Translations under genes and position numbers: made by a program
The notes under the pieces: model-generated
The model's database searches: none
Told to the model about the DNA's origin: nothing
The model's input: the letters and a program-made list of their open reading frames with translations, nothing else
Part shown: positions 1 to 9,888 of the stretch, piece by piece
How the letters are laid out: each line of letters starts with the position of its first letter
How positions within the stretch are numbered: the stretch's first letter is position 1
Origin: a virus
Lineage: Duplodnaviria > Heunggongvirae > Uroviricota > Caudoviricetes
Virus record (IMG/VR): IMGVR_UViG_2529292908_000017
Span: 1 to 9,888 of that record
DNA length: 9,888 nucleotides
Reading direction: 5' to 3' (one strand)

Positions 1-1242
1 ATGGCGAGAAAAACACACCCATTAACCACAGTGCAGATCAAAGCAGCCAGACCAGCGCAAAAGGAGTACACCCTGCAGGACGGCGGAGGGCTTTTTCTCC
101 TGGTCAAACCGTCTGGATCAAAACTCTGGAGATTTTCCTACTACCGACCATCGGACAAAAAAAGAATATTGCTGAGTTTTGGATCGCTTGAAGATGTTTC
201 CCTGGCTGATGCCAGAAAACGCCGTAGCGAGTACAGGACGTTAATCAGTGCCGGAACTGACCCGCAGGACCACGAGAGGCAAAAAAGAGAGACAGAGGCC
301 CGAAGACAAGGGAACACGTTCGAAAATGTGGCGGCGGCATGGTACCAGGTGAAAATCAGCCAGAATCTGGCCCCCAACACGATTAAAGACATCTGGCGTT
401 CGCTGGATAAATATGTATTCCCGTTCATCGGCAACACGCCAATAGATACCCTCACCGCCCGAAGGTTCGTTGAAGTGCTTACCCCCATCAAGGAGCGCGG
501 CAACCTGGAAACACTCAAGCGGGTTTTACAGCGCGTTAATGAGGTAATGGATTACGCCGCCAACAGTGGGCTGATTGATGCCAATCCGGCTATGAATGTG
601 CGTAAGGCGTTTCCCTCACCTGTAAAAAAACATATGCCAACAATCCGCCCCGAACAGCTGCCGGAGCTTATGCAGGCTTTATCAGTATCGGCAACAGAAC
701 GGCAGACCAGATTACTGATTGAATGGCAGTTACTGACCGTAACCCGTCCCGCCGAAGCGTCATCAACGCGGTGGGATGAAATCAACCTGGACGCGAAGCA
801 ATGGACGATACCTGCCGGACGCATGAAGATGCGCAGGGATCACGTTATCCCGCTTTCCGGTCAGGCTATGGCGGTGCTGGAGGCCATGAAACCAATCAGC
901 CACCACCGCAATTACGTTTTCCCAAGTCTGAAAGACCCACAGCAGCCGATGAACAGCCAGACAGCTAACGCAGCATTGCGGCGTATGGGATTCGCTGGCG
1001 TGCTGGTGTCTCATGGATTACGCGCCATATTCAGCACAGCAGCGAACGAGGAAGGATTCGAGCCGGACGTAATAGAGGCGGCACTTGCCCACGTCGACAC
1101 CAACGAAGTTAGACGGGCATACAACCGGAGCAACTACATAGAAAAACGCATCGTGCTGATGCGCTGGTGGGGCGAATTTGTCGAGGCTGCGGCGACGGGC
1201 GTAACCCTCGCCAGTGGTAAAAGGGGTATCCGAGCCGTGTAG
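1..1242 (+). CDS. int: Tyrosine recombinase / integrase, P4-type (satellite / genomic-island family)
   Basis: 413-aa ORF starting at window base 1. N-terminal arm-type region (GGGLFLLVKPSGSKLWRFSYY) typical of P4-family integrases; C-terminal catalytic region with HGLRAIFST (H-x-x-R) and RAYNRSNY (tyrosine nucleophile region). Recognition by eye, no search. Confidence 0.9.
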   Translation: MARKTHPLTTVQIKAARPAQKEYTLQDGGGLFLLVKPSGSKLWRFSYYRPSDKKRILLSFGSLEDVSLADARKRRSEYRTLISAGTDPQDHERQKRETEARRQGNTFENVAAAWYQVKISQNLAPNTIKDIWRSLDKYVFPFIGNTPIDTLTARRFVEVLTPIKERGNLETLKRVLQRVNEVMDYAANSGLIDANPAMNVRKAFPSPVKKHMPTIRPEQLPELMQALSVSATERQTRLLIEWQLLTVTRPAEASSTRWDEINLDAKQWTIPAGRMKMRRDHVIPLSGQAMAVLEAMKPISHHRNYVFPSLKDPQQPMNSQTANAALRRMGFAGVLVSHGLRAIFSTAANEEGFEPDVIEAALAHVDTNEVRRAYNRSNYIEKRIVLMRWWGEFVEAAATGVTLASGKRGIRAV

Positions 1243-1319
1243 CTGTACAGAAAACCAGTAAAAACTACGAAAACCATGTAAAACCGTCGTATAATTGCAT
1301 CAAATTTAACGACAAGGCC

Positions 1320-1571
1320 GTGAAACATGAAACCGTTAAGATGCAAAAAAATATCAGATGCAATTGCGACGGGCTGCAACTGGCCCTGATGGTTCAGCAT
1401 GAATTTTGGTCAACCTACGATCCGGAGGACAGGACGACGGCCCCATCAAAAAAACAGGTAGTAGATTTTCTGGTATCCCGTGGCGCTTCCAGAAATCTGG
1501 CGGTAAGTATTGATAAGGTCGTACGTCCGGCATCTATGAAGATCGGAGGCAGGCCCAAAAAATGGCGGTAA
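1320..1571 (+). CDS. Hypothetical small protein (83 aa)
   Basis: ORF with AAGG about 10 nt upstream of the ATG, ending 10 nt before a strong intrinsic terminator. A TATAAT hexamer lies at about 1290-1295. No family recognised. Confidence 0.45.
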   Translation: MKHETVKMQKNIRCNCDGLQLALMVQHEFWSTYDPEDRTTAPSKKQVVDFLVSRGASRNLAVSIDKVVRPASMKIGGRPKKWR

Positions 1572-1580
1572 CAATCCTGG

Positions 1581-1606
1581 AAGCGGCAGAAATGCCGCTT
1601 TTTTTA
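1581..1606 (+). terminator. Rho-independent terminator
   Basis: Stem AGCGGCA / TGCCGCT (7 bp) with GAAA loop followed by a T6-7 run, immediately after the 1320..1571 ORF. Confidence 0.7.
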
Positions 1607-1629
1607 TAATTCCATTTCAAATCATCAAT

Positions 1630-1735
1630 ATAAAAAACGGTGTATACCGTTTAAAAACGGTGGGAACTGTTTTTACCCATATCCGATGATTTACCGTATT
1701 TGTCACCGGAATACACCGGATTCACAAGGTAAATC
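1630..1735 (+). promoter_or_regulatory. Putative promoter/operator region upstream of alpA
   Basis: 10-bp direct repeat AAAAACGGTG at 1633-1642 and 1653-1662; inverted half-sites ACGGT-N4-ACCGT at 1637-1650; direct repeat CACCGGA at 1704-1710 and 1714-1720; AAGG RBS at 1726-1729 before the ATG at 1739. Function inferred. Confidence 0.3.
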
Positions 1736-1738
1736 ACG

Positions 1739-1944
1739 ATGGAAGCAATCAGAAAAATTATCTTTCGCCAGGAAGTAAAAAAATTATCCACATCAAGGCA
1801 GACAGCACGCTGCAAAGCATGATCAACGCCGGAGAATTTCCGCAGGGTTTTCGCGTTGGTTTACGCCGTCGCGGATGGTATGAGGATGATGTGTTGGCCT
1901 GGCAGAAAGAACGCGAACAGGAAGCACGCGGAACGGCTGCTTAA
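1739..1944 (+). pseudogene. alpA: AlpA-family (prophage CP4-57-type) HTH regulator, apparently disrupted by a 1-nt frameshift
   Basis: Frame from ATG 1739 reads MEAIRKIIFRQEVKKLSTSRQTARCKA then stops (TGA 1820-1822). The -1 frame continues LQSMINAGEFPQGFRVGLRRRGWYEDDVLAWQKERE to TAA 1942-1944. Joined, they match the AlpA pattern (TG-x-SR-x-T-IY-x-hh-x-G-x-FP ... G-W-x-E-x-D-h-x-x-W). Length 206 nt is not a multiple of 3; shift localised to about 1803-1811. Confidence 0.6.
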
Positions 1945-2092
1945 CGGGTATCACAGATATGACAAACACGAAAAAAGCGGCCCCGATATGGAGCCGCCTT
2001 TCTGAACAATTAACCCGCTGCGCCTTATGTGTATGTGATCCCAAACATAAGCACGGGGATGATAGCCGCTATCAGGCTGGTGGGCAATGCAA

Positions 2093-2266
2093 TCAGTCTG
2101 GTTCAGTTCGTTGCCATACCTGCAATGAGCGCTTTTCCCTATACTCTTTAAGGAATTGCTCAAGGGCAAAAGCACATGGTGCGAATCTTTCTGATTCATG
2201 CTCTATCTTTCTGCGCCGTCTTTTCCGTGCCGGTGATAATGTTTTGGTCAATTCTTTATCGGTCAT
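2093..2266 (-). CDS. Hypothetical small basic protein (57 aa from second ATG; 62 aa from first)
   Basis: Minus-strand ORF MTDKELTKTLSPARKRRRRKIEHESERFAPCAFALEQFLKEYREKRSLQVWQRTEPD, with AGGA 7 nt upstream of the internal ATG (+ coordinates 2264-2266). Composition is protein-like, unlike the overlapping 186-aa + ORF. No homologue recognised. Confidence 0.3.
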   Translation of the reverse strand: MTDKELTKTLSPARKRRRRKIEHESERFAPCAFALEQFLKEYREKRSLQVWQRTEPD

Positions 2267-2692
2267 TGTGTTGTCCTGCATAGCAATACGCCGTAATACC
2301 TCACACCACGGCGCTGGTGATGGTTACTCCTGCTCTTTGGCCTTGCGCCGCTGGCGGCGTTTGATCTCACCTTTAACGGCAGTAACTATAAATTGCGCCT
2401 TGCTTTCACCTTCATCTAAATTTTTTCTAAGTCTGCAACAACATCATGCGGGAATCTGGCATTTAACTGTTGCGACTTATTATTTGTTGAACCTGTTGCC
2501 ATTACTGAATCCTCTCTAAGTTGGTGCGATTCAGTATACACAAAAAAAATTTCAGAGAAAGGCTTGAAGTGCGATTCACTTACTGATAGGTTAAAAACGA
2601 ATGGTGCGATGCACCAAACAACAACGCCCCGCAGTGGTGGCACACATGCAGGGCGTCTAACCACCAACGATAACGAGAGTATCGAGGTAGCT

Positions 2693-2896
2693 ATGAGAAA
2701 TCATACCACACACCCGCAAGGGCGGGACTCGCACGACCTGAATAAATACATCTGGCGTTTTATCGCCCTGAGCACGGCACAACCGCGCGTGATTACCATT
2801 GAGGCCACCAGCGAACAGGAAGCACGCCTGCAATCCCCGGCTGGCTGCGTGATGGTATTCGCTGCCCGTATTCGCCAGGGGTCACATCATGCGTAA
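2693..2896 (+). CDS. Small protein, paralogue A of a tandem pair; possibly Ash / Icd-like family (unverified)
   Basis: ATG 2693 preceded by GAGG (2684-2687). C-terminal motif YIWRF ... EATSEQEARLQSP ... FAARIRQGSHHA is repeated in the next gene, with synonymous third-position differences (CGT/CGC, CGC/CGT). The longer TTG start at 2564 in the ORF track has no credible RBS. Confidence 0.5.
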   Translation: MRNHTTHPQGRDSHDLNKYIWRFIALSTAQPRVITIEATSEQEARLQSPAGCVMVFAARIRQGSHHA

Positions 2897-3575
2897 AAAC
2901 CGCTTGCAAAAAATTATCACGGGGCTGTATGCTTCCCCCGTCGCCCACATGGCGACCGGGTTTAGCAGCCTGAATACATCTGGCGGACAGCCGCCCACAT
3001 CCGATAAGCGGTTTTTTTGTGTCCGTAAACCTACCCATACCCGCATTATGGCGGGGCGTAACGGGGGAGCCTTTGTGCTCGCTGGTTTCCAGATGACCAG
3101 TCTGCTAACCCTGTTACGTCTCGCCACCATGTTTAGCAGCGTAGTAGCGAGACTCCTTAAAATTCATCTGGGAGCCTTTCACATGGCTGTATTCGCACGC
3201 CCTTATTTTGTCTGGCGCTTTATGCAGTGCCTGACAGACAGTATTGCAATATTCACCGTTACCGCTGCCACTGAGCGCGAAGCACGTGCACAGCTGCCGC
3301 ACGCACATCTTATTTTTGTCGCCCGTATTCGCCAGGGGGGGGGAGTCATGCATAAAATACCCTTTGATGTTCTTGTTCATTCTGAAAACGCATTAATCCG
3401 CGCAAAGGAAATGGACGCATTACTACTTAAGTTAATTGATGTGCCGGAAAGTGGCGATGAATCTGATTCAATGATGTTTTCTGCCGTGCGTACGCTATTA
3501 ACGCCTGTTATTAATGAATTAAATACAGTGATGGCAATTCACGAGAATAATAAAGCGCAGCACAACGGAGAATAA
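2889..3575 (+). CDS. Composite ORF: N-terminal segment of unknown nature, then paralogue B (from internal ATG 3183 with GGAG RBS), read through a G9 tract into a 75-aa C-terminal segment
   Basis: Continuous 228-aa ORF; ATG 2889 overlaps the stop of the previous gene (ATGCGTAA). Residues from 3183 (MAVFARPYFVWRF ... TAATEREARAQLP ... FVARIRQGGG) parallel paralogue A. G9 tract at 3335-3343; with G10 the paralogue would end ...QGGGSHA* (compare A: ...QGSHHA*) and a separate ORF would start at ATG 3348. Confidence 0.4.
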   Translation: MRKNRLQKIITGLYASPVAHMATGFSSLNTSGGQPPTSDKRFFCVRKPTHTRIMAGRNGGAFVLAGFQMTSLLTLLRLATMFSSVVARLLKIHLGAFHMAVFARPYFVWRFMQCLTDSIAIFTVTAATEREARAQLPHAHLIFVARIRQGGGVMHKIPFDVLVHSENALIRAKEMDALLLKLIDVPESGDESDSMMFSAVRTLLTPVINELNTVMAIHENNKAQHNGE

Positions 3576-3580
3576 AAAAC

Positions 3581-3880
3581 ATGAAAAATAAAAATTCTGG
3601 CGTTACTGCCAGCGGCCCCGCTCGTCCTGAATTTATGAACGGCGATATTTACCGCGATAAATATGGCGGCATGGTAACGATTAAAGGCGTGGCAGAACGG
3701 CGCATCACCTACCGTCGTGAAGGCTACGAATATGATTGCGTGATGCCTGTTTATCAGTTTCGGCGTGATTTTTCTCTGGTACAGGCAGCGCCCCGCAGTA
3801 AACCAACCAGCAGGGAGAAAGCACGCGCCAATATTCAGGAAATAAAAAAGATGCTTAACGTATTCAGGGGTAAAAAATGA
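3581..3880 (+). CDS. Hypothetical protein (99 aa), translationally coupled to the primase
   Basis: ORF with GGAG upstream; its TGA stop (3878-3880) overlaps the primase ATG (3877-3879) as ATGA. Protein-like composition; family not recognised. Confidence 0.6.
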   Translation: MKNKNSGVTASGPARPEFMNGDIYRDKYGGMVTIKGVAERRITYRREGYEYDCVMPVYQFRRDFSLVQAAPRSKPTSREKARANIQEIKKMLNVFRGKK

Positions 3881-5625
3881 AACTGGCACCGAACGTAAAA
3901 AAACAGCCACGCGGAATAAAACACAAAGACACAGAGGTAATTATTTTCGCGGGTAGTGATGCCTGGTCGCACGCGAAACAATGGCAGGAGCAGGATGGCC
4001 CCGCATCCGGCGATAATGTGCCGCCTGTGTGGCTTGGGCCAAATCAGCTTGCCGAACTTGATGCACTGAAAATTGTTCCGGATGGGAAAAAGCGCGTAAG
4101 GCTGTACCAGGCCGGAGAACTGGATTTGGTGGAGACCAAAAAGATTGGTCAGAAGCTGGCGGCAGCAGATATTCAGGACGCAAATTTTTACCCCGAAGGA
4201 ATGCACGTCCAGAAGTGTGAAAACTGGCGGCGCTATCTGAATGCTGAGCGTGAAAATATTGCCGCAGGGCTTACCATGCCGGAGCAGAAAAATACGCAAC
4301 TGGCACAAATGGCAGACAGTGAGCGCGCGCAGCTGCTTGCCGAGCGCTTTGATGGCGTTTGTGTGCATCCTGAAAGTGAAATCGTTCACGTATGGCGCGG
4401 CGGGGTATGGTGTCCGGTCAGCACAATGGAGCTGAGCCGCGAAATGGTGGCGATCTATTCAGAGCACAGGGCCACTTTCAGCAAGCGCGTAATCAATAAC
4501 GCCGTGGAAGCGTTAAAAGTTATTGCCGAACCAATGGGCGAGCCGTCCGGCGATTTGCTGCCGTTCGCCAATGGTGCGCTTGACCTGAAAACGGGGGAAT
4601 TTTCCCCGCACACGCCGGAGAACTGGATCACCACGCACAACGGCATTGAGTACACGCCACCAGCACCAGGGGAGAACATCCGCGATAACGCGCCAAACTT
4701 TCATAAATGGCTTAAGCACGCAGCCGGAAAAGACCCGCGCAAGATGATGCGTATATGTGCCGCGCTGTACATGATTATGGCGAACCGGTACGACTGGCAG
4801 ATGTTTATTGAGGCCACCGGAGACGGCGGGAGCGGTAAAAGTACATTCACGCACATAGCCAGCCTTCTGGCAGGGAAACAGAACACGGTAAGCGCTGAAA
4901 TGACATCGCTTGATGATGCTGGTGGACGTGCGCAGGTTGTCGGGAGTCGTCTTATCGTCCTGGCTGACCAGCCGAAATATACAGGCGAAGGAACGGGCAT
5001 CAAGAAAATCACGGGCGGTGACCCCGTGGAAATTAACCCGAAATATGAAAAGCGTTTTACGGCGGTAATCAGGGCGGTGGTGCTGGCGACCAACAACAAC
5101 CCGATGATATTCACCGAACGGGCCGGAGGTGTGGCACGTCGTCGCGTGATTTTCCGTTTCGACAATATCGTCAGTGAGGCCGAAAAAGACAGGGAGCTAC
5201 CGGAAAAGATTGCGGCTGAAATCCCTGTGATTATCCGCCGATTACTGGCGAACTTTTCCGCCCCTGAAAAGGCACGGGCTTTACTCATTGAACAGCGTGA
5301 CGGTGATGAAGCACTGGCGATAAAGCAGCAAACGGATCCGGTTATTGAGTTTTGCCAGTTCCTGAATTTTCTGGAGGAAGCGCGCGGCCTGATGATGGGG
5401 GGCGGTGGCGATTCAGTGAAGTACACGACCAGGAACAGCCTTTACCGCGTCTATCTGGCGTTTATGGCATACGCAGGCAGGAGCAAACCGCTAAACGTAA
5501 ATGACTTTGGCAAGGCTATGAAGCCAGCCGCGAAAGTTTACGGACATGAATATATTACGCGGAAAGTTAAGGGAGTAACGCAGACTAACGCAATAACAAC
5601 AGACGATTGCGACGCGTTTTTATAA
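3877..5625 (+). CDS. Phage/plasmid primase-helicase, P4-family C-terminal domain / D5-like SF3 NTPase (satellite pri-rep type)
   Basis: 582-aa ORF with AGGGGT RBS. Walker A P-loop ATGDGGSGKST, followed by motifs typical of D5 / P4-alpha-type helicases (LIVLADQP Walker B-like, VVLATNN). Immediately followed by an iteron array. N-terminal ~300 aa not assigned. Confidence 0.88.
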   Translation: MKLAPNVKKQPRGIKHKDTEVIIFAGSDAWSHAKQWQEQDGPASGDNVPPVWLGPNQLAELDALKIVPDGKKRVRLYQAGELDLVETKKIGQKLAAADIQDANFYPEGMHVQKCENWRRYLNAERENIAAGLTMPEQKNTQLAQMADSERAQLLAERFDGVCVHPESEIVHVWRGGVWCPVSTMELSREMVAIYSEHRATFSKRVINNAVEALKVIAEPMGEPSGDLLPFANGALDLKTGEFSPHTPENWITTHNGIEYTPPAPGENIRDNAPNFHKWLKHAAGKDPRKMMRICAALYMIMANRYDWQMFIEATGDGGSGKSTFTHIASLLAGKQNTVSAEMTSLDDAGGRAQVVGSRLIVLADQPKYTGEGTGIKKITGGDPVEINPKYEKRFTAVIRAVVLATNNNPMIFTERAGGVARRRVIFRFDNIVSEAEKDRELPEKIAAEIPVIIRRLLANFSAPEKARALLIEQRDGDEALAIKQQTDPVIEFCQFLNFLEEARGLMMGGGGDSVKYTTRNSLYRVYLAFMAYAGRSKPLNVNDFGKAMKPAAKVYGHEYITRKVKGVTQTNAITTDDCDAFL

Positions 5626-5636
5626 TTTTTTGCAAT

Positions 5637-5865
5637 GTCTGTCTACCCTGTCTACCTGAGTAAAGAAAAATACATTTAATTCAGTATATTAACTTAGGTA
5701 GACAGCCTTTTTTCACTGTCTACCTACTATCTACCCTCTCTACCTGATTTTACCTGAATCAGACAGGGAGGTAGATACGGGGTAGATAGTGGATAAAAGC
5801 ACTCTACCCCGCTGAAAGCCGCGCCATTACTGGCATGAGAGCCAGTAAGGTAGATAAGGTAGACA
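5637..5865. repeat. Iteron array, putative replication origin
   Basis: About 11 copies of the heptamer GTCTACC / GGTAGA(C/T) in both orientations (e.g. 5641-5647, 5650-5656, 5697-5703, 5718-5724, 5770-5776, 5781-5787, 5849-5855, 5858-5864) around an AT-rich core (about 5657-5695), directly downstream of the primase-helicase gene. Confidence 0.65.
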
Positions 5866-5913
5866 AGGGGAGGCACAACTCAAAACTTTTTAAACGAGGG
5901 GGTAAAAATAAAA

Positions 5914-6171
5914 ATGCGCACATCAGGAAAACTTAATAATCAGAAGAAGCAGCATAACCGCGCCATTGACCTTACAGAGCACTGGCTGAGAGTGGCGATA
6001 AAAATCATCGACCGCAACACGGGGGAAGGATACGCGAAAGCACATCCCGACCTGATAAGCGCATTCATGACCACGGCGGCAGCAAACTTTGCCACGCTGA
6101 CAGAACGGGAGATTGCCGAAGCGGAACAGGTGACAACCATCAACGTTAAAACCGGAGAGCAGACAGCATGA
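5914..6171 (+). CDS. Hypothetical protein (85 aa), coupled to ssb
   Basis: ORF with GAGGGGG upstream; its stop overlaps the next ATG (ATGA at 6168-6171). No family recognised. Confidence 0.5.
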   Translation: MRTSGKLNNQKKQHNRAIDLTEHWLRVAIKIIDRNTGEGYAKAHPDLISAFMTTAAANFATLTEREIAEAEQVTTINVKTGEQTA

Positions 6172-6590
6172 CAGCACAGATAGCGGCTTACGGGCGGCTG
6201 GTGGCTGACCCGCAGTTAAAGACCACCAGCAAAGGGACACAAATGGCGATGGCGAGTATGGCGGTTCCCCTGCCATGCAGCCAGGCAGATGACGGAACGG
6301 CGACGATGTGGTTATCTGTCCTGGCGTTTGGCAGACAGGCCGACGCACTGGCAAAACACCACAAAGGCGAACTCCTGAGCGTGGCGGGTAATATGCAGGT
6401 GAGCCAGTGGACAGGCCAGAACGGCGAAACGCGGCAGGGCTGGCAGGTTATCGCAGACAGTGTAATCAGTGCCAGAACGGCGCGACCGGGCGGCAAAAAA
6501 GGTCAACAGGGGCAGGCTACTGACGCACTGAACAGGGCAAAACAACAGGCGGGAAATGATGATCCGTACGGGGATAACATACCGTTTTAA
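6168..6590 (+). CDS. ssb: Single-stranded DNA-binding protein (SSB-like OB fold with acidic C-terminal tip)
   Basis: 140 aa. N-terminal OB region aligns by eye with E. coli SSB (YGRLVADPQLK vs VGNLGQDPEVR; WLSVLAFGRQADALAKHHKGE vs [21 protein letters not shown]). Gly/Gln-rich linker and C-terminal DDPYGDNIPF resemble the SSB tail DDDIPF. Confidence 0.78.
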   Translation: MTAQIAAYGRLVADPQLKTTSKGTQMAMASMAVPLPCSQADDGTATMWLSVLAFGRQADALAKHHKGELLSVAGNMQVSQWTGQNGETRQGWQVIADSVISARTARPGGKKGQQGQATDALNRAKQQAGNDDPYGDNIPF

Positions 6591-6606
6591 GCAACGAGTA
6601 ACAGAG

Positions 6607-6628
6607 GCCGGAGCAATCCGGCTTTTAT
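6607..6628 (+). terminator. Rho-independent terminator after ssb
   Basis: Stem GCCGGA / TCCGGC with GCAA loop followed by TTTTAT. Confidence 0.65.
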
Positions 6629-6861
6629 CAGTTGAGTCCGTCACACTACGCAAAAAAAAGCCGGAATATTCCGACCCTTTCATCACCAAAGAGAATAATT
6701 TATGTCTTTGAACTTGTAACGCTGTACAGAATGACACGTAACGCCGGATAAATAAACGAAGATTGAAACTTTGCACACTATTGCATAGCAATGCATAAAG
6801 ATGCCAAACAAGGCAGATGATAAAATTAACGCGACACTTTTACTAAGTATTAAGAGGTTAT

Positions 6862-7902
6862 ATGAGTGATTTATATTCGCCAGCCATGTTAATACAGGTT
6901 GTTAATGCCGAAGATATTCAATGGCAGATTAATTCTTTATTTATAAACCTGTTTTTTAAGCGAGTCGTTACATTTGAGACGCGGGATATTGCGCTTGATA
7001 TTATTGACGATCCAGACATCCCGATGGCTGCATTTTGTTCCCCTATGGTTGGTAGTAAAGTCTCACGCGATGAAGGCTACGAATCAAAAGTAATTCGCCC
7101 TGGCTATATGAAGCCAAAAAGTAGTATCGACCCAAATAAAATAGCCGTTCGTCAACCAGGCGTATCACCTGAACAATTCAATGCATATTCATCACGCAGT
7201 TTCAAAATAAAGCGAGCGTTAGTAAGACAAGCGCAGGCAATTCGTGCGCGTATTGAGTGGCTTGCTGTTCAGGCGGTTACAACGGGGAAAAATATCATTG
7301 AAGGCGATGGAATTGAACGTTATGAACTGGACTGGAATATAAAACCACAAAATATTATCACGCAGTCCGGCGGCACGGAGTGGAGCGGTAGAGATTTATC
7401 AACATTTGATCCAAACGATGACATCGAAGAGTACGCAGAAATCAGCGAAGGTACTACAAATATCATCGTAATGGGCCGCAACGTATGGAAAAAATACCGC
7501 GCCTTTAAAGCAGTAAAAGATTGCCTTGATACTCGACGGGGATCTAATTCCATTCTTGAAACGGCCCTGAAAAATCTTGGGGATTCTGTAAGCTTCAAGG
7601 GTTACGTTGGCGATGTTGCTATTGTGGTATATAGCGGACGTTATACCGACGAGGACGGCAAAGAAAAATATTTCCTTGATCCTGATTTGATGGTGCTTGG
7701 CAACACATCATTACAGGGCATCGTTGCCTACGGTGGCATTCAGGATCCTGAGTTAATCAGAATGGGGCTGACTAAAGCCGAACTTGCGCCGAAAAATTAC
7801 ATCGTACCAGGTGATCCGGCTATTGAATATGTGCAGACGCACAGCGCACCGCAACCAATACCGGCCCGCATCAATCGTTTTGTTACCGTTCGCATTGGTT
7901 AA
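6862..7902 (+). CDS. Major capsid protein, phage lambda gpE family
   Basis: 346 aa with AAGAGG RBS. Long colinear matches to remembered lambda gpE: NIITQSGGTEWSGRDLSTFDPNDDIEEYA (lambda NITQSGGTEWSKRDKSTYDPTDDIEAYA); FKAVKDCLDTRRGSNSILETALKNLGDSVSFKGYVGDVAIVVYSGRY ... MVLGNT (lambda FKAVKEKLDTRRGSNSELETAVKDLGKAVSYKGMYGDVAIVVYSGQY ... MVLGNT). Confidence 0.9.
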   Translation: MSDLYSPAMLIQVVNAEDIQWQINSLFINLFFKRVVTFETRDIALDIIDDPDIPMAAFCSPMVGSKVSRDEGYESKVIRPGYMKPKSSIDPNKIAVRQPGVSPEQFNAYSSRSFKIKRALVRQAQAIRARIEWLAVQAVTTGKNIIEGDGIERYELDWNIKPQNIITQSGGTEWSGRDLSTFDPNDDIEEYAEISEGTTNIIVMGRNVWKKYRAFKAVKDCLDTRRGSNSILETALKNLGDSVSFKGYVGDVAIVVYSGRYTDEDGKEKYFLDPDLMVLGNTSLQGIVAYGGIQDPELIRMGLTKAELAPKNYIVPGDPAIEYVQTHSAPQPIPARINRFVTVRIG

Positions 7903-7911
7903 GGGGGAGCA

Positions 7912-8253
7912 ATGGCTACTCATTACACTGAACTCATGGCTGGCACTGAAGCACTGGTTACTACGTTGGGGATATTTTCAGCTAATAAAGGGGTAATTCC
8001 TGCATTTACGCCACTGATGCAAGAAGATGCAACTGGTGCACTGGTGGTATGGGATGGAACGAGCGCAGGCAAAGCTGTTTATGTTTCCGCTGTACAAATC
8101 GATACAGCGACAAAAACGCAGGCTCAGGTTTATAAAACCGGCGTCTTAAATGTTGATGCTCTGAACTGGCCTGAGTCTGTAACACAACTATCAGCAAAAG
8201 TTGCTGCGTTTGTTGGCTCAGGTATTTCTGTTCAGCCGCTGGCACGTGTGTGA
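7912..8253 (+). CDS. Head decoration protein, phage lambda gpD family
   Basis: 113 aa with GGGGGAG RBS. Matches remembered gpD: TPLMQEDATGALVVWDGTSAGKAV (lambda [24 protein letters not shown]), YKTGVLNVDALNWPE (YKSGTFRYEDVLWPE), AAFVGSGISV (TAFAGTAISIV). Confidence 0.85.
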   Translation: MATHYTELMAGTEALVTTLGIFSANKGVIPAFTPLMQEDATGALVVWDGTSAGKAVYVSAVQIDTATKTQAQVYKTGVLNVDALNWPESVTQLSAKVAAFVGSGISVQPLARV

Positions 8254-8262
8254 GGTACGAGA

Positions 8263-8607
8263 ATGATTGAAAGAGATAGTCAGCTACGAGAGCTATTAGA
8301 TATCGATGACAAAATGAGTTTAAGCGAGCGCCTTGTTGATATGGATCAGGTAGTGGAGCTTACAACCCTTAGCCGTCGCACATTGCTAAACCTTGAGGCT
8401 CGCGGAGAGTTCCCCGAACGCGTACAGGTTACGAAAGGGCGCAAGGCATGGTATTTAAGCGAGGTTGTTGCGTGGATTAACAACATTCCGCGCGCATCAA
8501 ATTATTGCCTTGTTCCCACCCCCGAAAAACCTGATGCGGCGTTATGCCTCAAGATTGAACGCGCCAGGCGTAATGCCCTGAAAGGACGCAATAAGTTGAT
8601 TGGTTGA
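8263..8607 (+). CDS. AlpA/MerR-like helix-turn-helix DNA-binding protein (114 aa)
   Basis: GAGG RBS. Central segment VVELTTLSRRTLLNLEARGEFPERVQVTKGRKAWYLSEVVAWI fits the AlpA / excisionase-type HTH pattern, with N- and C-terminal extensions. Lies between the decoration gene and cos. Confidence 0.65.
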   Translation: MIERDSQLRELLDIDDKMSLSERLVDMDQVVELTTLSRRTLLNLEARGEFPERVQVTKGRKAWYLSEVVAWINNIPRASNYCLVPTPEKPDAALCLKIERARRNALKGRNKLIG

Positions 8608-8631
8608 TGAAATTAGGGCCCGTTCTGGCTG

Positions 8632-8830
8632 GCGGGTCCTTTCCGGCGATCCGGCAGGCTACGGGGCGGCGACCTCGCGGTTTTTCGCTATTTATGAGCC
8701 TTTTCAGGGGGGTGGTGGTGGTTTTGTTGTTTGATCTATCTTTATGAATGAAAAGGGAAAGATGCAAGCAATACACCAACCTGAAGCAGTAATTAAGTTG
8801 GTGTATTAATGAAATCTCATCTGATGAACA
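8632..8830 (+). other. cos site 1 (+ orientation): lambda-like cosQ/cosN (cosN 8664-8675, GGGCGGCGACCT) followed by a divergent cosB-like region up to the terS start
   Basis: GCGGGTCCTTTCCGGCGATCCGGCAGGCTACG-GGGCGGCGACCT-CGCGGTTTTTCGCTATTTATGA is near-identical to the remembered lambda cos junction. Downstream lacks lambda R-site-like GAAACGACA elements but has an 11-bp perfect inverted repeat (8770-8780 / 8797-8807). Confidence 0.75.
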
Positions 8831-8837
8831 AAAAAAC

Positions 8838-9350
8838 ATGGCGAAAAGCTGCCGTGTAAGTGCGACAGCGTTCGACAAGTGGGGAGTAACTCCCGTTGAG
8901 CGTAAAGGCCGTGAGGCGTTTTATGATGTTGCCAGCGTGATAGAAAATAGGGTTAACAATGCAATTAGCCAGCTTATAAACGACAAAGGCGAGATTGACG
9001 ATGATGAACTTTTACGAGTCAGGATCAGATTACTGACAGCACAGGCAGAGGCGCAGGAACTTAAAAACGATCGCGATCGCGGTGACGTGATTGATACTGA
9101 GTTTTGCCTGTACGCGCTTTCAAAGCTGGCGAGTCAGATTTCATCAATCATGGACAGCCTCCCGCTTACTATGCAAAGGAGCTTCCCACAGATTACCCCC
9201 GCCATGCTGGATAGGCTTAAAAGGGAAGTGGTTAAAGCCTGTAATGCCAGTGCCAGAGTTGCCGACAACCTCCCACAGATACTGGCTGATTACTTGAAAG
9301 AAACAACCGGAAACGTACCGGAAAAGTTGCTACAGAAGAAAGGCGAGTAA
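8838..9350 (+). CDS. Terminase small subunit, lambda Nu1 family, with divergent N-terminal DNA-binding region
   Basis: 170 aa. C-terminal two-thirds matches remembered Nu1: LTAQAEAQELKNDRDRGDVIDTEFCLYALSKLASQISSIMDSLPLTMQRSFPQ (lambda LTRAQADAQELKNARDSAEVVETAFCTFVLSRIAGEIASILDGLPLSVQRRFPE). N-terminal ~45 aa only loosely similar. An upstream ATG at 8824 (MNKKTW...) is out of frame by 1 nt across an A7 tract. Confidence 0.85.
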   Translation: MAKSCRVSATAFDKWGVTPVERKGREAFYDVASVIENRVNNAISQLINDKGEIDDDELLRVRIRLLTAQAEAQELKNDRDRGDVIDTEFCLYALSKLASQISSIMDSLPLTMQRSFPQITPAMLDRLKREVVKACNASARVADNLPQILADYLKETTGNVPEKLLQKKGE

Positions 9351-9369
9351 CAGACGCGCAATTATTGAA

Positions 9370-9580
9370 CAAAACTGAGAAACGACATGAAAGCGTCATA
9401 AATCGCCATTTTAGATGATTACCGTGTCGTTTCTTTTTATTGTGTATCTATTTAAAAACAAATAGTTATGTTCGAGAAGTACCGACATGCTTTTTCCAGA
9501 AAATTTTTCATAAACAGATAAAAACCGCGAGGTCGCCGCCCCGTAACGGGTCCATAATTCCAGGAAGGACCCGACGACAC
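9370..9580 (-). other. cos site 2 (inverted): cosN at 9530-9541 with a lambda-like cosB (R3 / IHF-I1 / R2 / R1-like elements) on the terS-proximal side
   Basis: The reverse complement reads ...CCCGTTACG-GGGCGGCGACCT-CGCGGTTTTTATCTGTTTATGAAAAATTTTCTGG ... CGAACATAACTATTTGTTTTTAAATAGATAC ... AAAGAAACGACACGG ... CATGTCGTTTCTCAG, paralleling the remembered lambda left end (cosN, I1 IHF site CGTCATAACTTAATGTTTTTATTTAAAATACC, R2 GGAAACGACAGG, R1 CTGTCGTTTCC). No terminase gene follows in this orientation. Confidence 0.7.
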
Positions 9581-9606
9581 CAGACAATCAGAACGATGGG
9601 TGCACA

Positions 9607-9888
9607 ATGACAGAAGCCGAAATACTGGGATTAATCCGCCGTGCTGGTGGAATCAGCCAGCAGACTGACGAACAGGCCACGCAGCCGGACAGCGTGACAG
9701 CCGAAAATTATGCGCGTGTTGTTGCTGAGGTGATGCGCCGTGATGGTATCCAGCTTAATGATGTGGATATGCGCAACATACGGATCCGCGTTCTTGAAAT
9801 GCTGGCCTACCGTCGCCGCGTGCAGACGTACAGGGAAAAAGCAAAAATTACGTACCACTGGAAGAAGCCGGAGCGGTTACGGCGGTAA
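9607..9888 (+). CDS. Hypothetical protein (93 aa)
   Basis: Complete ORF ending at the last base of the window (TAA 9886-9888). Weak RBS. No family recognised; Arg-rich C-terminus. Confidence 0.45.
   Translation: MTEAEILGLIRRAGGISQQTDEQATQPDSVTAENYARVVAEVMRRDGIQLNDVDMRNIRIRVLEMLAYRRRVQTYREKAKITYHWKKPERLRR

Follow-up and report, generated by a model that had tools for sequence, protein, structure and literature searches.

Capsid genes are the commonest late genes that phage-inducible chromosomal islands (PICIs) of Gram-negative bacteria carry, yet the only knockouts of them gave no phenotype. What, then, does such a satellite do with a major capsid gene and a decoration gene of its own? We have taken up this question with a stretch of 9,888 nucleotides, positions 1 to 9,888 of the IMG/VR record IMGVR_UViG_2529292908_000017 (hereafter the window), which is nearly the whole of a Gram-negative PICI of the EcCICFT073 family. 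The island is a sibling of EcCICFT073 and a new mosaic member of the Gram-negative PICIs. It carries homologues of the phage lambda capsid gene E and decoration gene D, and an initial interpretation of the DNA without database searches (the sequence-only reading) had proposed that these might remodel the capsid of a helper phage.

Our analysis gives a different emphasis. The E and D genes are intact, they come from an old satellite-specific lineage, and they are kept by purifying selection. The role that we favour, with a probability that we put at roughly 0.45, is that the two proteins would make, or supplement, lambda-type shells of normal size on the portal and scaffold of the helper. It is favoured because it fits both the conservation of E and D and the negative results that have been published. 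The capsid and decoration pair is itself an already published feature of the family and not a new discovery: a capsid gene is present in 21 of the 29 reference Gram-negative PICIs, where it is not required for transfer (PMC10111431).

The capsid and decoration proteins and their lineage

Both genes proved to be what the sequence-only reading had taken them for. The E protein matches the Pfam family Phage_cap_E (PF03864; E = 3.2e-41; residues 14-343 on positions 9-327 of a profile of 329) and the PHROG 29 major head protein (E = 5e-89), and it shares 42.6% identity with lambda gpE across 97% of its length. Among known structures it matches PDB entry 3BQW (E = 3e-121), a crystal structure of a c1499-type protein that bears the title "putative capsid protein of prophage (E. 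coli CFT073)". Superposition of an AlphaFold model of the protein (pLDDT 84, pTM 0.84) gives TM scores of 0.89 with lambda gpE and 0.92 with 3BQW. With near certainty E is a full-length major capsid protein of the lambda gpE type with an HK97-like fold, and a Shine-Dalgarno sequence for it, AAGAGG, is found at 6852-6857. Its divergence is greatest in the N-arm, the E-loop and the spine helix (13-40% identity, versus 47-87% in residues 166-300).

The D protein matches the Pfam family HDPD (PF02924, the family of the head decoration protein D of lambda; E = 2.6e-16, residues 3-103) and PHROG 49 head decoration (E = 7e-27). Its best PDB match is the SHP protein of phage 21 (1TD0; E = 9e-17), lambda gpD scoring about 1e-12, and within residues 30-107 it shares 41% identity with lambda gpD. 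The satellite pair and the lambda and phage 21 proteins thus share families, lengths and fold. The arrangement of the genes differs: E precedes D in the window, whereas D precedes E in lambda, and the lambda genes lie within a long late operon, with the block Nu1-A-W-B-C-Nu3 upstream and FI-FII downstream, both of which the window lacks. D starts 9 nt after the stop of E and in the same reading frame, and at 7900-7914 only the TAA stop and these 9 nt part the two. Fusions of E and D have been recorded, one of 463 aa (P0002), 98% identical, on a single public contig and another of 470 aa (P0063) among the homologues of 42% identity. They could have arisen through mutation, read-through or an error of sequencing.

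The homologues of E form an unbroken series of identities between 98% and 51% (Escherichia, Salmonella, Cedecea, Scandinavium, Serratia, Edwardsiella, Lelliottia and other genera), followed by a gap to 43% and below. Every homologue of at least 51% whose context was examined belongs to a satellite, in which E precedes D with a gap of 8-11 nt or an overlap, and every examined homologue at or below 43% belongs to a phage head operon of the order A-W-B-C-D-E-FI. None of the 414 matching phage records, out of 50,697, has an E more than 43% identical to that of the window. A neighbour-joining tree separates satellite and phage E proteins with 100% bootstrap support and divides the satellite proteins into two subclades, the window type and the CFT073/Nissle type. 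The satellites that carry the pair have unrelated integrases and replication modules, and they occupy differing sites (tRNA-Pro, fis, the interior of the helper E gene, a portal gene, a sheath gene and a P2-type terminase gene); the capsid cassette is always found beside cos and terminase-specificity genes. In E. coli the E-D lineage of the window occurs in 395 of 5,426 complete genomes.

Between genera the non-synonymous differences in E amount to 0.04-0.36 per site, with synonymous differences saturated at 0.66-0.85. The ratio of the two rates (dN/dS), where computable, lies at 0.03-0.2 in the case of E; that of D is about 0.04-0.36. This pattern of substitution, together with the intact full-length copies in many genera, rules out the view that the genes are decaying remnants. 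A recent capture from a helper is likewise ruled out by the identity of 43% or less to every phage E, the fully supported split of the tree and the inverted gene order. A less recent version of the latter idea holds that the genes once came from a helper, perhaps through ancestors which were embedded in it and interrupted its gene E, and that in islands integrated at tRNA genes they are at most a spare copy; a function as backup is suggested in PMC10111431. The neutral knockouts agree with this proposal, as does the existence of satellites (L006, L007) that carry relatives of the cassette and lie at about codon 80 of the E gene of their helper. A spare copy is nonetheless hard to reconcile with strong purifying selection acting across genera for long enough to saturate synonymous change, with intact copies in tRNA- and fis-integrated islands as well, with a monophyletic clade so remote from every sequenced phage E, or with a conserved promoter that the cassette is predicted to possess. 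We consider this historical explanation quite improbable.

These helper-embedded PICIs, of which Eco567.11capE (PMC10111431) is an example, are informative relatives. The Cedecea and Kosakonia satellites, inserted at this position in the E gene of a lambda-type prophage, carry a window-type cassette (E 77-80%, D 70-73% and helix-turn-helix protein 70-71% identical), and an Edwardsiella relative is inserted in the portal gene; in such cases the surrounding prophage supplies lambda-type B, C, Nu3, D and E. Their integrases, however, are only about 22% identical to that of the window, whose own close relatives lie beside a tRNA gene, at tRNA-Pro between yejM and yejO, and not in a prophage; only the more distant carriers of the cassette are embedded.

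Terminator, predicted promoter and exchange of the cassette

Bases 6603-8631 are a late (morphogenesis) cassette composed of a terminator, a predicted regulated promoter, E, D and an AlpA-like regulator gene. The terminator had been proposed in the sequence-only reading, and folding bears it out: a hairpin with a U-run, situated between the replication module (the ssb gene ends at 6590) and the capsid genes, has a dG of -15.3 kcal/mol and a z score of -4.2. Hairpins rich in GC are found at the equivalent position in the satellites of Kluyvera, Superficieibacter and Kosakonia. The hairpin was missed by a simple terminator scan and revealed by folding; the same scan called both copies of cos terminator-like.

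The intergenic region that follows is variable, and its sole conserved block consists of a set of TTGCAY repeats and an extended -10 element, found at the same place in six genera. The -10 element has the form TGnTAnnAT in the relatives, its position being kept in all six, and the repeats stand at the same place upstream of E in four relatives (L001, L004, L005, L007). The repeat pattern has 4 matches in the window against 0.72 expected, all of them at 6771-6806 except for one reverse-strand copy in D. This last copy, an exact TTGCAY-N4-WTGCAY match at 8017-8032 (-) that recurs in L001, may be due to chance. Sequence conservation makes the repeats a candidate binding site for a regulator of the capsid operon and the -10 element the predicted start of a transcript of E, D and the helix-turn-helix gene; E and D would then be expressed from a promoter of their own. 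A sigma-54 promoter has a GC-to-GC spacing of 11 and a GG at -24. Here the spacing is 10 and the -24 GG is missing, which rules out such a promoter, and a version of the repeat pattern with 11-bp spacing found no matches in the window where the 10-bp version did.

The sequence-only reading had assigned E and D to an operon of their own. A separate transcription unit is indeed predicted, but E and D are probably not its only members, as it probably includes also the AlpA-like gene that starts 10 nt after D. Its product has counterparts, 70-71% identical, encoded directly after D in satellites of Kluyvera, Superficieibacter, Cedecea and Kosakonia, and an AlpA-family gene follows D in Serratia and Salmonella too. 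In the window-type subclade this gene closes the cassette and accompanies E and D.

That the cassette moves as a unit is seen in the island of E. coli Nissle 1917 (L002), one of three relatives that megablast located among complete E. coli genomes. Over positions 1-2354 the window shares 99% identity with the Nissle island, and over 3550-6626 it shares 89%; the similarity is lost exactly at the terminator (6626) and regained at 8632 (96.7%), just before the first cos site. Between these breakpoints the E proteins are only 56% and the D proteins 54% identical. The E-D pair has been exchanged as a cassette between islands that are otherwise nearly identical. In the Nissle island a terminator-containing direct repeat of 31 nt (16971-17001 and 19411-19441, 94% identical) brackets the capsid cassette, and it could be a recombination substrate for such exchange.

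A proposed shell on a borrowed portal

The observation that had drawn attention to the locus was the absence of the portal (B), protease (C) and scaffold (Nu3) genes from the neighbourhood of E and D, and it holds. When lambda Nu1, A, W, B, C, Nu3, D, E, FI, FII, Z, U and V were compared with the window by tblastn, the only significant matches were to Nu1, D and E, and B, C, Nu3, A and W gave nothing in the window with E < 1. Searches of the window with Pfam, PHROG and the lambda genes revealed no tail or lysis genes. The missing genes are not to be found past position 9888 either: the complete, nearly identical islands of E. coli MEW (L001), Nissle and M7424 (L017) contain no portal, protease or scaffold gene. 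In all three the island ends after a gene for a 93-aa protein, and about 1 kb with no annotated gene separates this from the chromosomal yejO, which rules out that the window is followed closely by head genes. Shells of the lambda type are initiated on a portal and depend on Nu3 and C. Any shell of the satellite E must therefore use helper proteins and would need the helper's portal and its scaffold and protease, a dependence that the sequence-only reading had rightly drawn from lambda head assembly.

If the role that we favour is correct, the induction of a lambda-type helper would lead to expression of E and D from their own promoter. The proteins would then assemble on the helper portal (gpB type), with the help of its scaffold and protease (gpC/Nu3 type), into lambda-like shells of normal size. 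These would supplement or replace the capsid protein of the helper and package concatemers of the island, about 4 x 10.7 kb. The satellite would in this way gain a partial independence from the helper's supply of capsid protein, in a position between that of a classical PICI and that of a capsid-forming PICI (cf-PICI). When the helper has ample gpE the satellite pair would be redundant, which would explain the neutral knockouts. Published work on EcCICFT073, for which helper-induced excision, replication and high-frequency transfer have been demonstrated (PMC6092414, PMC6739421), provides some of the background. In a lambda lysogen carrying this island all of the DNA that had been packaged was of phage size (PMC6092414), a result that fits shells of normal size, and PICIs of this family are described as packaged in large capsids as concatemers (cf-PICI preprint; PMC10111431).

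The cf-PICIs, such as EcCIEDL933, share with the window a PICI backbone that carries capsid genes. They differ in that they encode the major capsid protein, protease, portal, head-tail connectors, HNH, TerS and TerL and make small capsids of their own, whereas the window has a capsid protein, a decoration protein and TerS, and neither it nor the complete related islands have a portal, protease, connectors or TerL. In a fis-integrated PICI of Lelliottia (L015, 11409-12752), E and D are followed directly by an S49 protease/scaffold gene of the lambda C type, which shares 50% identity with lambda C; the island also carries a gene with a Phage_HCP domain beside alpA. The gene content of this island is intermediate between the PICIs with E and D only and the capsid-forming ones.

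A number of points weigh against the formation of normal-size shells by E and D. Fillol-Salom et al. (2018), who asked whether c1499 (capsid) and c1500 (decoration) of EcCICFT073 act like the Ccm protein of SaPIbov5, deleted each gene and found that lambda plaques were not restored, the interference with lambda persisting, and that island transfer through the resident prophages did not change (PMC6092414; restated in PMC10111431 and in the cf-PICI preprint). Any contribution was therefore dispensable under those conditions; no later functional study of a PICI E or D was found in our literature searches. Furthermore, the satellite E is only about 43% identical to the helper E even where the one is embedded in the other (L007, L006), it has diverged most in the N-arm, E-loop and spine helix, and its ability to work with the portal and scaffold of the helper is putative. 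The presence of E and D in particles is, for any PICI, a prediction. One Salmonella satellite with the pair (L013) interrupts the terminase gene of a P2-type prophage whose capsid, scaffold and portal are not of the lambda type. Lastly, alpA, the activator of the family, is frameshifted in the window.

The sequence-only reading had gone further and suggested capsids specific to the satellite and perhaps smaller, and this part of it finds no support in the published results. In its explicit form, modelled on Ccm, the satellite E would co-assemble with the helper capsid protein, for example in the pentamers, and impose a smaller T number that leaves room for the island alone, with D stabilising the shell. 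There are precedents: Ccm is, like E, a satellite homologue of the helper's major capsid protein in an element that lacks its own portal and scaffold genes, and it occupies the pentamers of T=4 procapsids (PMC8569155), and PmCI172, which also has a capsid homologue, gives small heads. The inter-capsomer parts of the protein, the N-arm and E-loop, are the most diverged of the window's E, and two deeply divergent cassettes have been exchanged on the same backbone. The published test covered only the other type of cassette (55% and 54% identical to the window's E and D) and was made with laboratory helpers. In that test, however, the packaged DNA was all phage-sized and the deletions affected neither interference nor transfer, and the description of the family as packaged in large capsids points the same way. 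Unlike Ccm, which shifts the shape and size of the capsid and has no decoration partner, a full-length gpE with its own gpD would seem to be a complete shell-forming pair and not a vertex specialist. We think remodelling unlikely.

The knockouts bear also on a role in interference, in which E, D or both would be poison or competitor subunits that tie up portal, scaffold or decoration sites of the helper and lower the phage yield, with no part in the satellite's own particles. Satellites often disturb helper assembly, an identity of about 43% to the helper E could permit non-productive mixed contacts, and an effect of this kind could hide behind a dominant Rpp or TerS block. Yet the deletions did not relieve the interference with lambda, and the satellite itself needs working heads; moreover, a strongly conserved whole fold with a matched decoration protein exceeds the needs of a poison subunit, and some relatives add a protease/scaffold gene. 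Interference of this type appears to us slightly more unlikely than remodelling. A non-structural function, with the pair as decoy, trigger or inhibitor directed at capsid-sensing host immunity or at helper regulation, would have indirect support from knockouts that have no transfer phenotype and from an E-D satellite residing in a P2-type prophage without lambda-type head partners. No feature of the sequence points in this direction, E has the fold, the length and the decoration partner of a functional shell protein, and the cassette is found in linkage with cos and terminase genes. It is the least probable of the explanations considered here.

The P2-type residence deserves a description of its own. 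Two Salmonella genomes carry the same 10.1-kb E-D satellite, 99.9% identical (L012, 4107-14250; L013, 4108-14251), at different sites. In one genome it is inserted in a myovirus tail-sheath gene and in the other in the large-terminase gene of the P2-type prophage, which has no lambda-type head genes; the two sites have in common only a short core, TTTAAAC(C)AG.

To return to normal-size shells on a borrowed helper portal and scaffold, there is a possible extension of this role that would take the exchange of cassettes into account. The E-D pair might be the island's own shell, and the two divergent cassettes that are swapped might be compatibility types, suited either to different helper head-assembly machineries or to different shell properties, possibly including size with other helpers. 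We advance this extension as a tentative proposal that is more doubtful than the role itself.

Layout of the island and significance of the cassette

The features of the window are collected in Table 1. All of the assigned genes are on the + strand. The same island architecture adjoins tRNA-Pro, between yejM and yejO, in E. coli MEW, Nissle 1917 and M7424; the flanking repeats, which close the element about 1 kb past the 93-aa gene, are separated by 10.5 kb in MEW and by 11.3 kb in Nissle, and the att sites lie outside the window. The iterons 3' of the primase gene are at the expected position for the PICI origin of replication. The 93-aa gene is the final gene of the island in MEW, Nissle, M7424 and all the other relatives, and its product is 84-95% identical in MEW and Nissle.

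Table 1. Positions of genes, RNAs and sites in the window
Feature	Position	Strand	Evidence or remark
Tyrosine integrase	1-1242	+	Pfam, three domains; left end, reading inward
alpA	~1739-1944	+	Frameshifted
Icd-like genes	between alpA and 3581		
C4 antisense RNA, P4 CI-type immunity RNA	3044-3131	+	Rfam 72.7 bits (gathering score 45); within Icd-like/Bro zone
DUF4222	3581-3880	+	
D5/P4-type primase (D5_N/DUF5906/Pox_D5)	3877-5625	+	Pfam
ori iterons TGTCTACC(T), at least 12 copies	5639-5868		Both orientations; between primase gene and next gene
85-aa open reading frame	5914-6171	+	
ssb (SSB)	6168-6590	+	
Intrinsic-terminator-like hairpin GGCCGGAGCAATCCGGC then TTTTAT	6603-6630	+	Folding
TTGCAY/ATGCAY repeats, three to four, 10-bp phase	6771-6806	+	Candidate regulator binding site
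Extended -10 promoter element TGaTAAAAT	6818-6826	+	Predicted from sequence conservation
E, lambda gpE-like major capsid protein, satellite type, 346 aa	6862-7902	+	Pfam, PHROG, PDB, AlphaFold
D, gpD/SHP-type head decoration protein, 113 aa	7912-8253	+	Pfam, PHROG, PDB
Second AlpA-family helix-turn-helix protein, 114 aa	8263-8607	+	Pfam Phage_AlpA E 9e-8; PHROG 2790 E 1e-37
cos1, 12-nt cohesive end GGGCGGCGACCT	8664-8675	+	Identical to lambda's; lambda-like flanks
Nu1-like small terminase homologue, 170 aa as read	8838-9350	+	Pfam Phage_Nu1 E 8e-23
cos2, lambda-type cohesive end GGGCGGCGACCT, inverted relative to cos1	9530-9541	-	Lambda-like flanks
Conserved 93-aa protein	9607-9888	+	PHROG 1561 E 6e-56

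The two cos sites flank the Nu1-like gene in inverted orientation. The Nu1-like protein is 37% identical to lambda Nu1 (residues 35-180), and in the relatives it has 180 aa, with a start near 8809. It was also considered as a member of the Rpp proteins (144-153 aa); it has no BLAST match to the RppA of EcCICFT073 and no PDB match to RppC, and it aligns with the C-terminal two thirds of Nu1, which rules out this assignment.

Two single-nucleotide deletions distinguish the window from the Nissle island, and both are in runs of A with seven residues against eight in Nissle. The deletion at 8830-8836 shifts the opening 10 codons of the terminase homologue into another frame, and its reading frame restarts at the ATG at 8838. 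That at 1777-1783 frameshifts alpA after about codon 13 and leaves a C-terminal open reading frame of 41 aa (1819-1944). The rest of both segments is 97-99% identical to Nissle, and E and D are unaffected. Two such deletions within 9.9 kb suggest homopolymer sequencing errors and not a real inactivation, and it is because of the second that we read the alpA frameshift in this manner.

The comparison with EcCICFT073 itself (L019) illustrates the mosaic character of the island. The two have the same order of integrase, alpA, primase, ssb, E, D, packaging-specificity gene and 93-aa gene, with primases that are 91%, 85-aa proteins that are 99% and 93-aa proteins that are 86% identical. Each has two lambda-type cos sites (PMC6739421), E before D, and no portal, protease or scaffold gene. 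In contrast, E and D of EcCICFT073 belong to the other cassette subclade; a 68-aa gene precedes E and a 137-aa gene follows D there, whereas the window's cassette ends in the AlpA-like gene, and RppA stands in place of the full Nu1-like TerS homologue. The integrases are only 24% identical, and the insertion site is roxA-phoQ in place of the tRNA-Pro/yejM-yejO site of the window's relatives.

What is new here is the satellite-specific clade of E, the inverted order of E and D, the strong purifying selection, the conserved terminator and promoter, and the exchange of the cassette. The distinct clade, the order, the selection, the predicted promoter of their own and the exchange argue that the E and D genes of these islands are not debris, and the interest of the locus lies in the role of the pair rather than in the discovery of a feature already in the literature. 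If the satellites do build their own shell on a stolen portal, they would take the empty place between satellites that rob their helpers of whole capsids and those that rob them only of tails.

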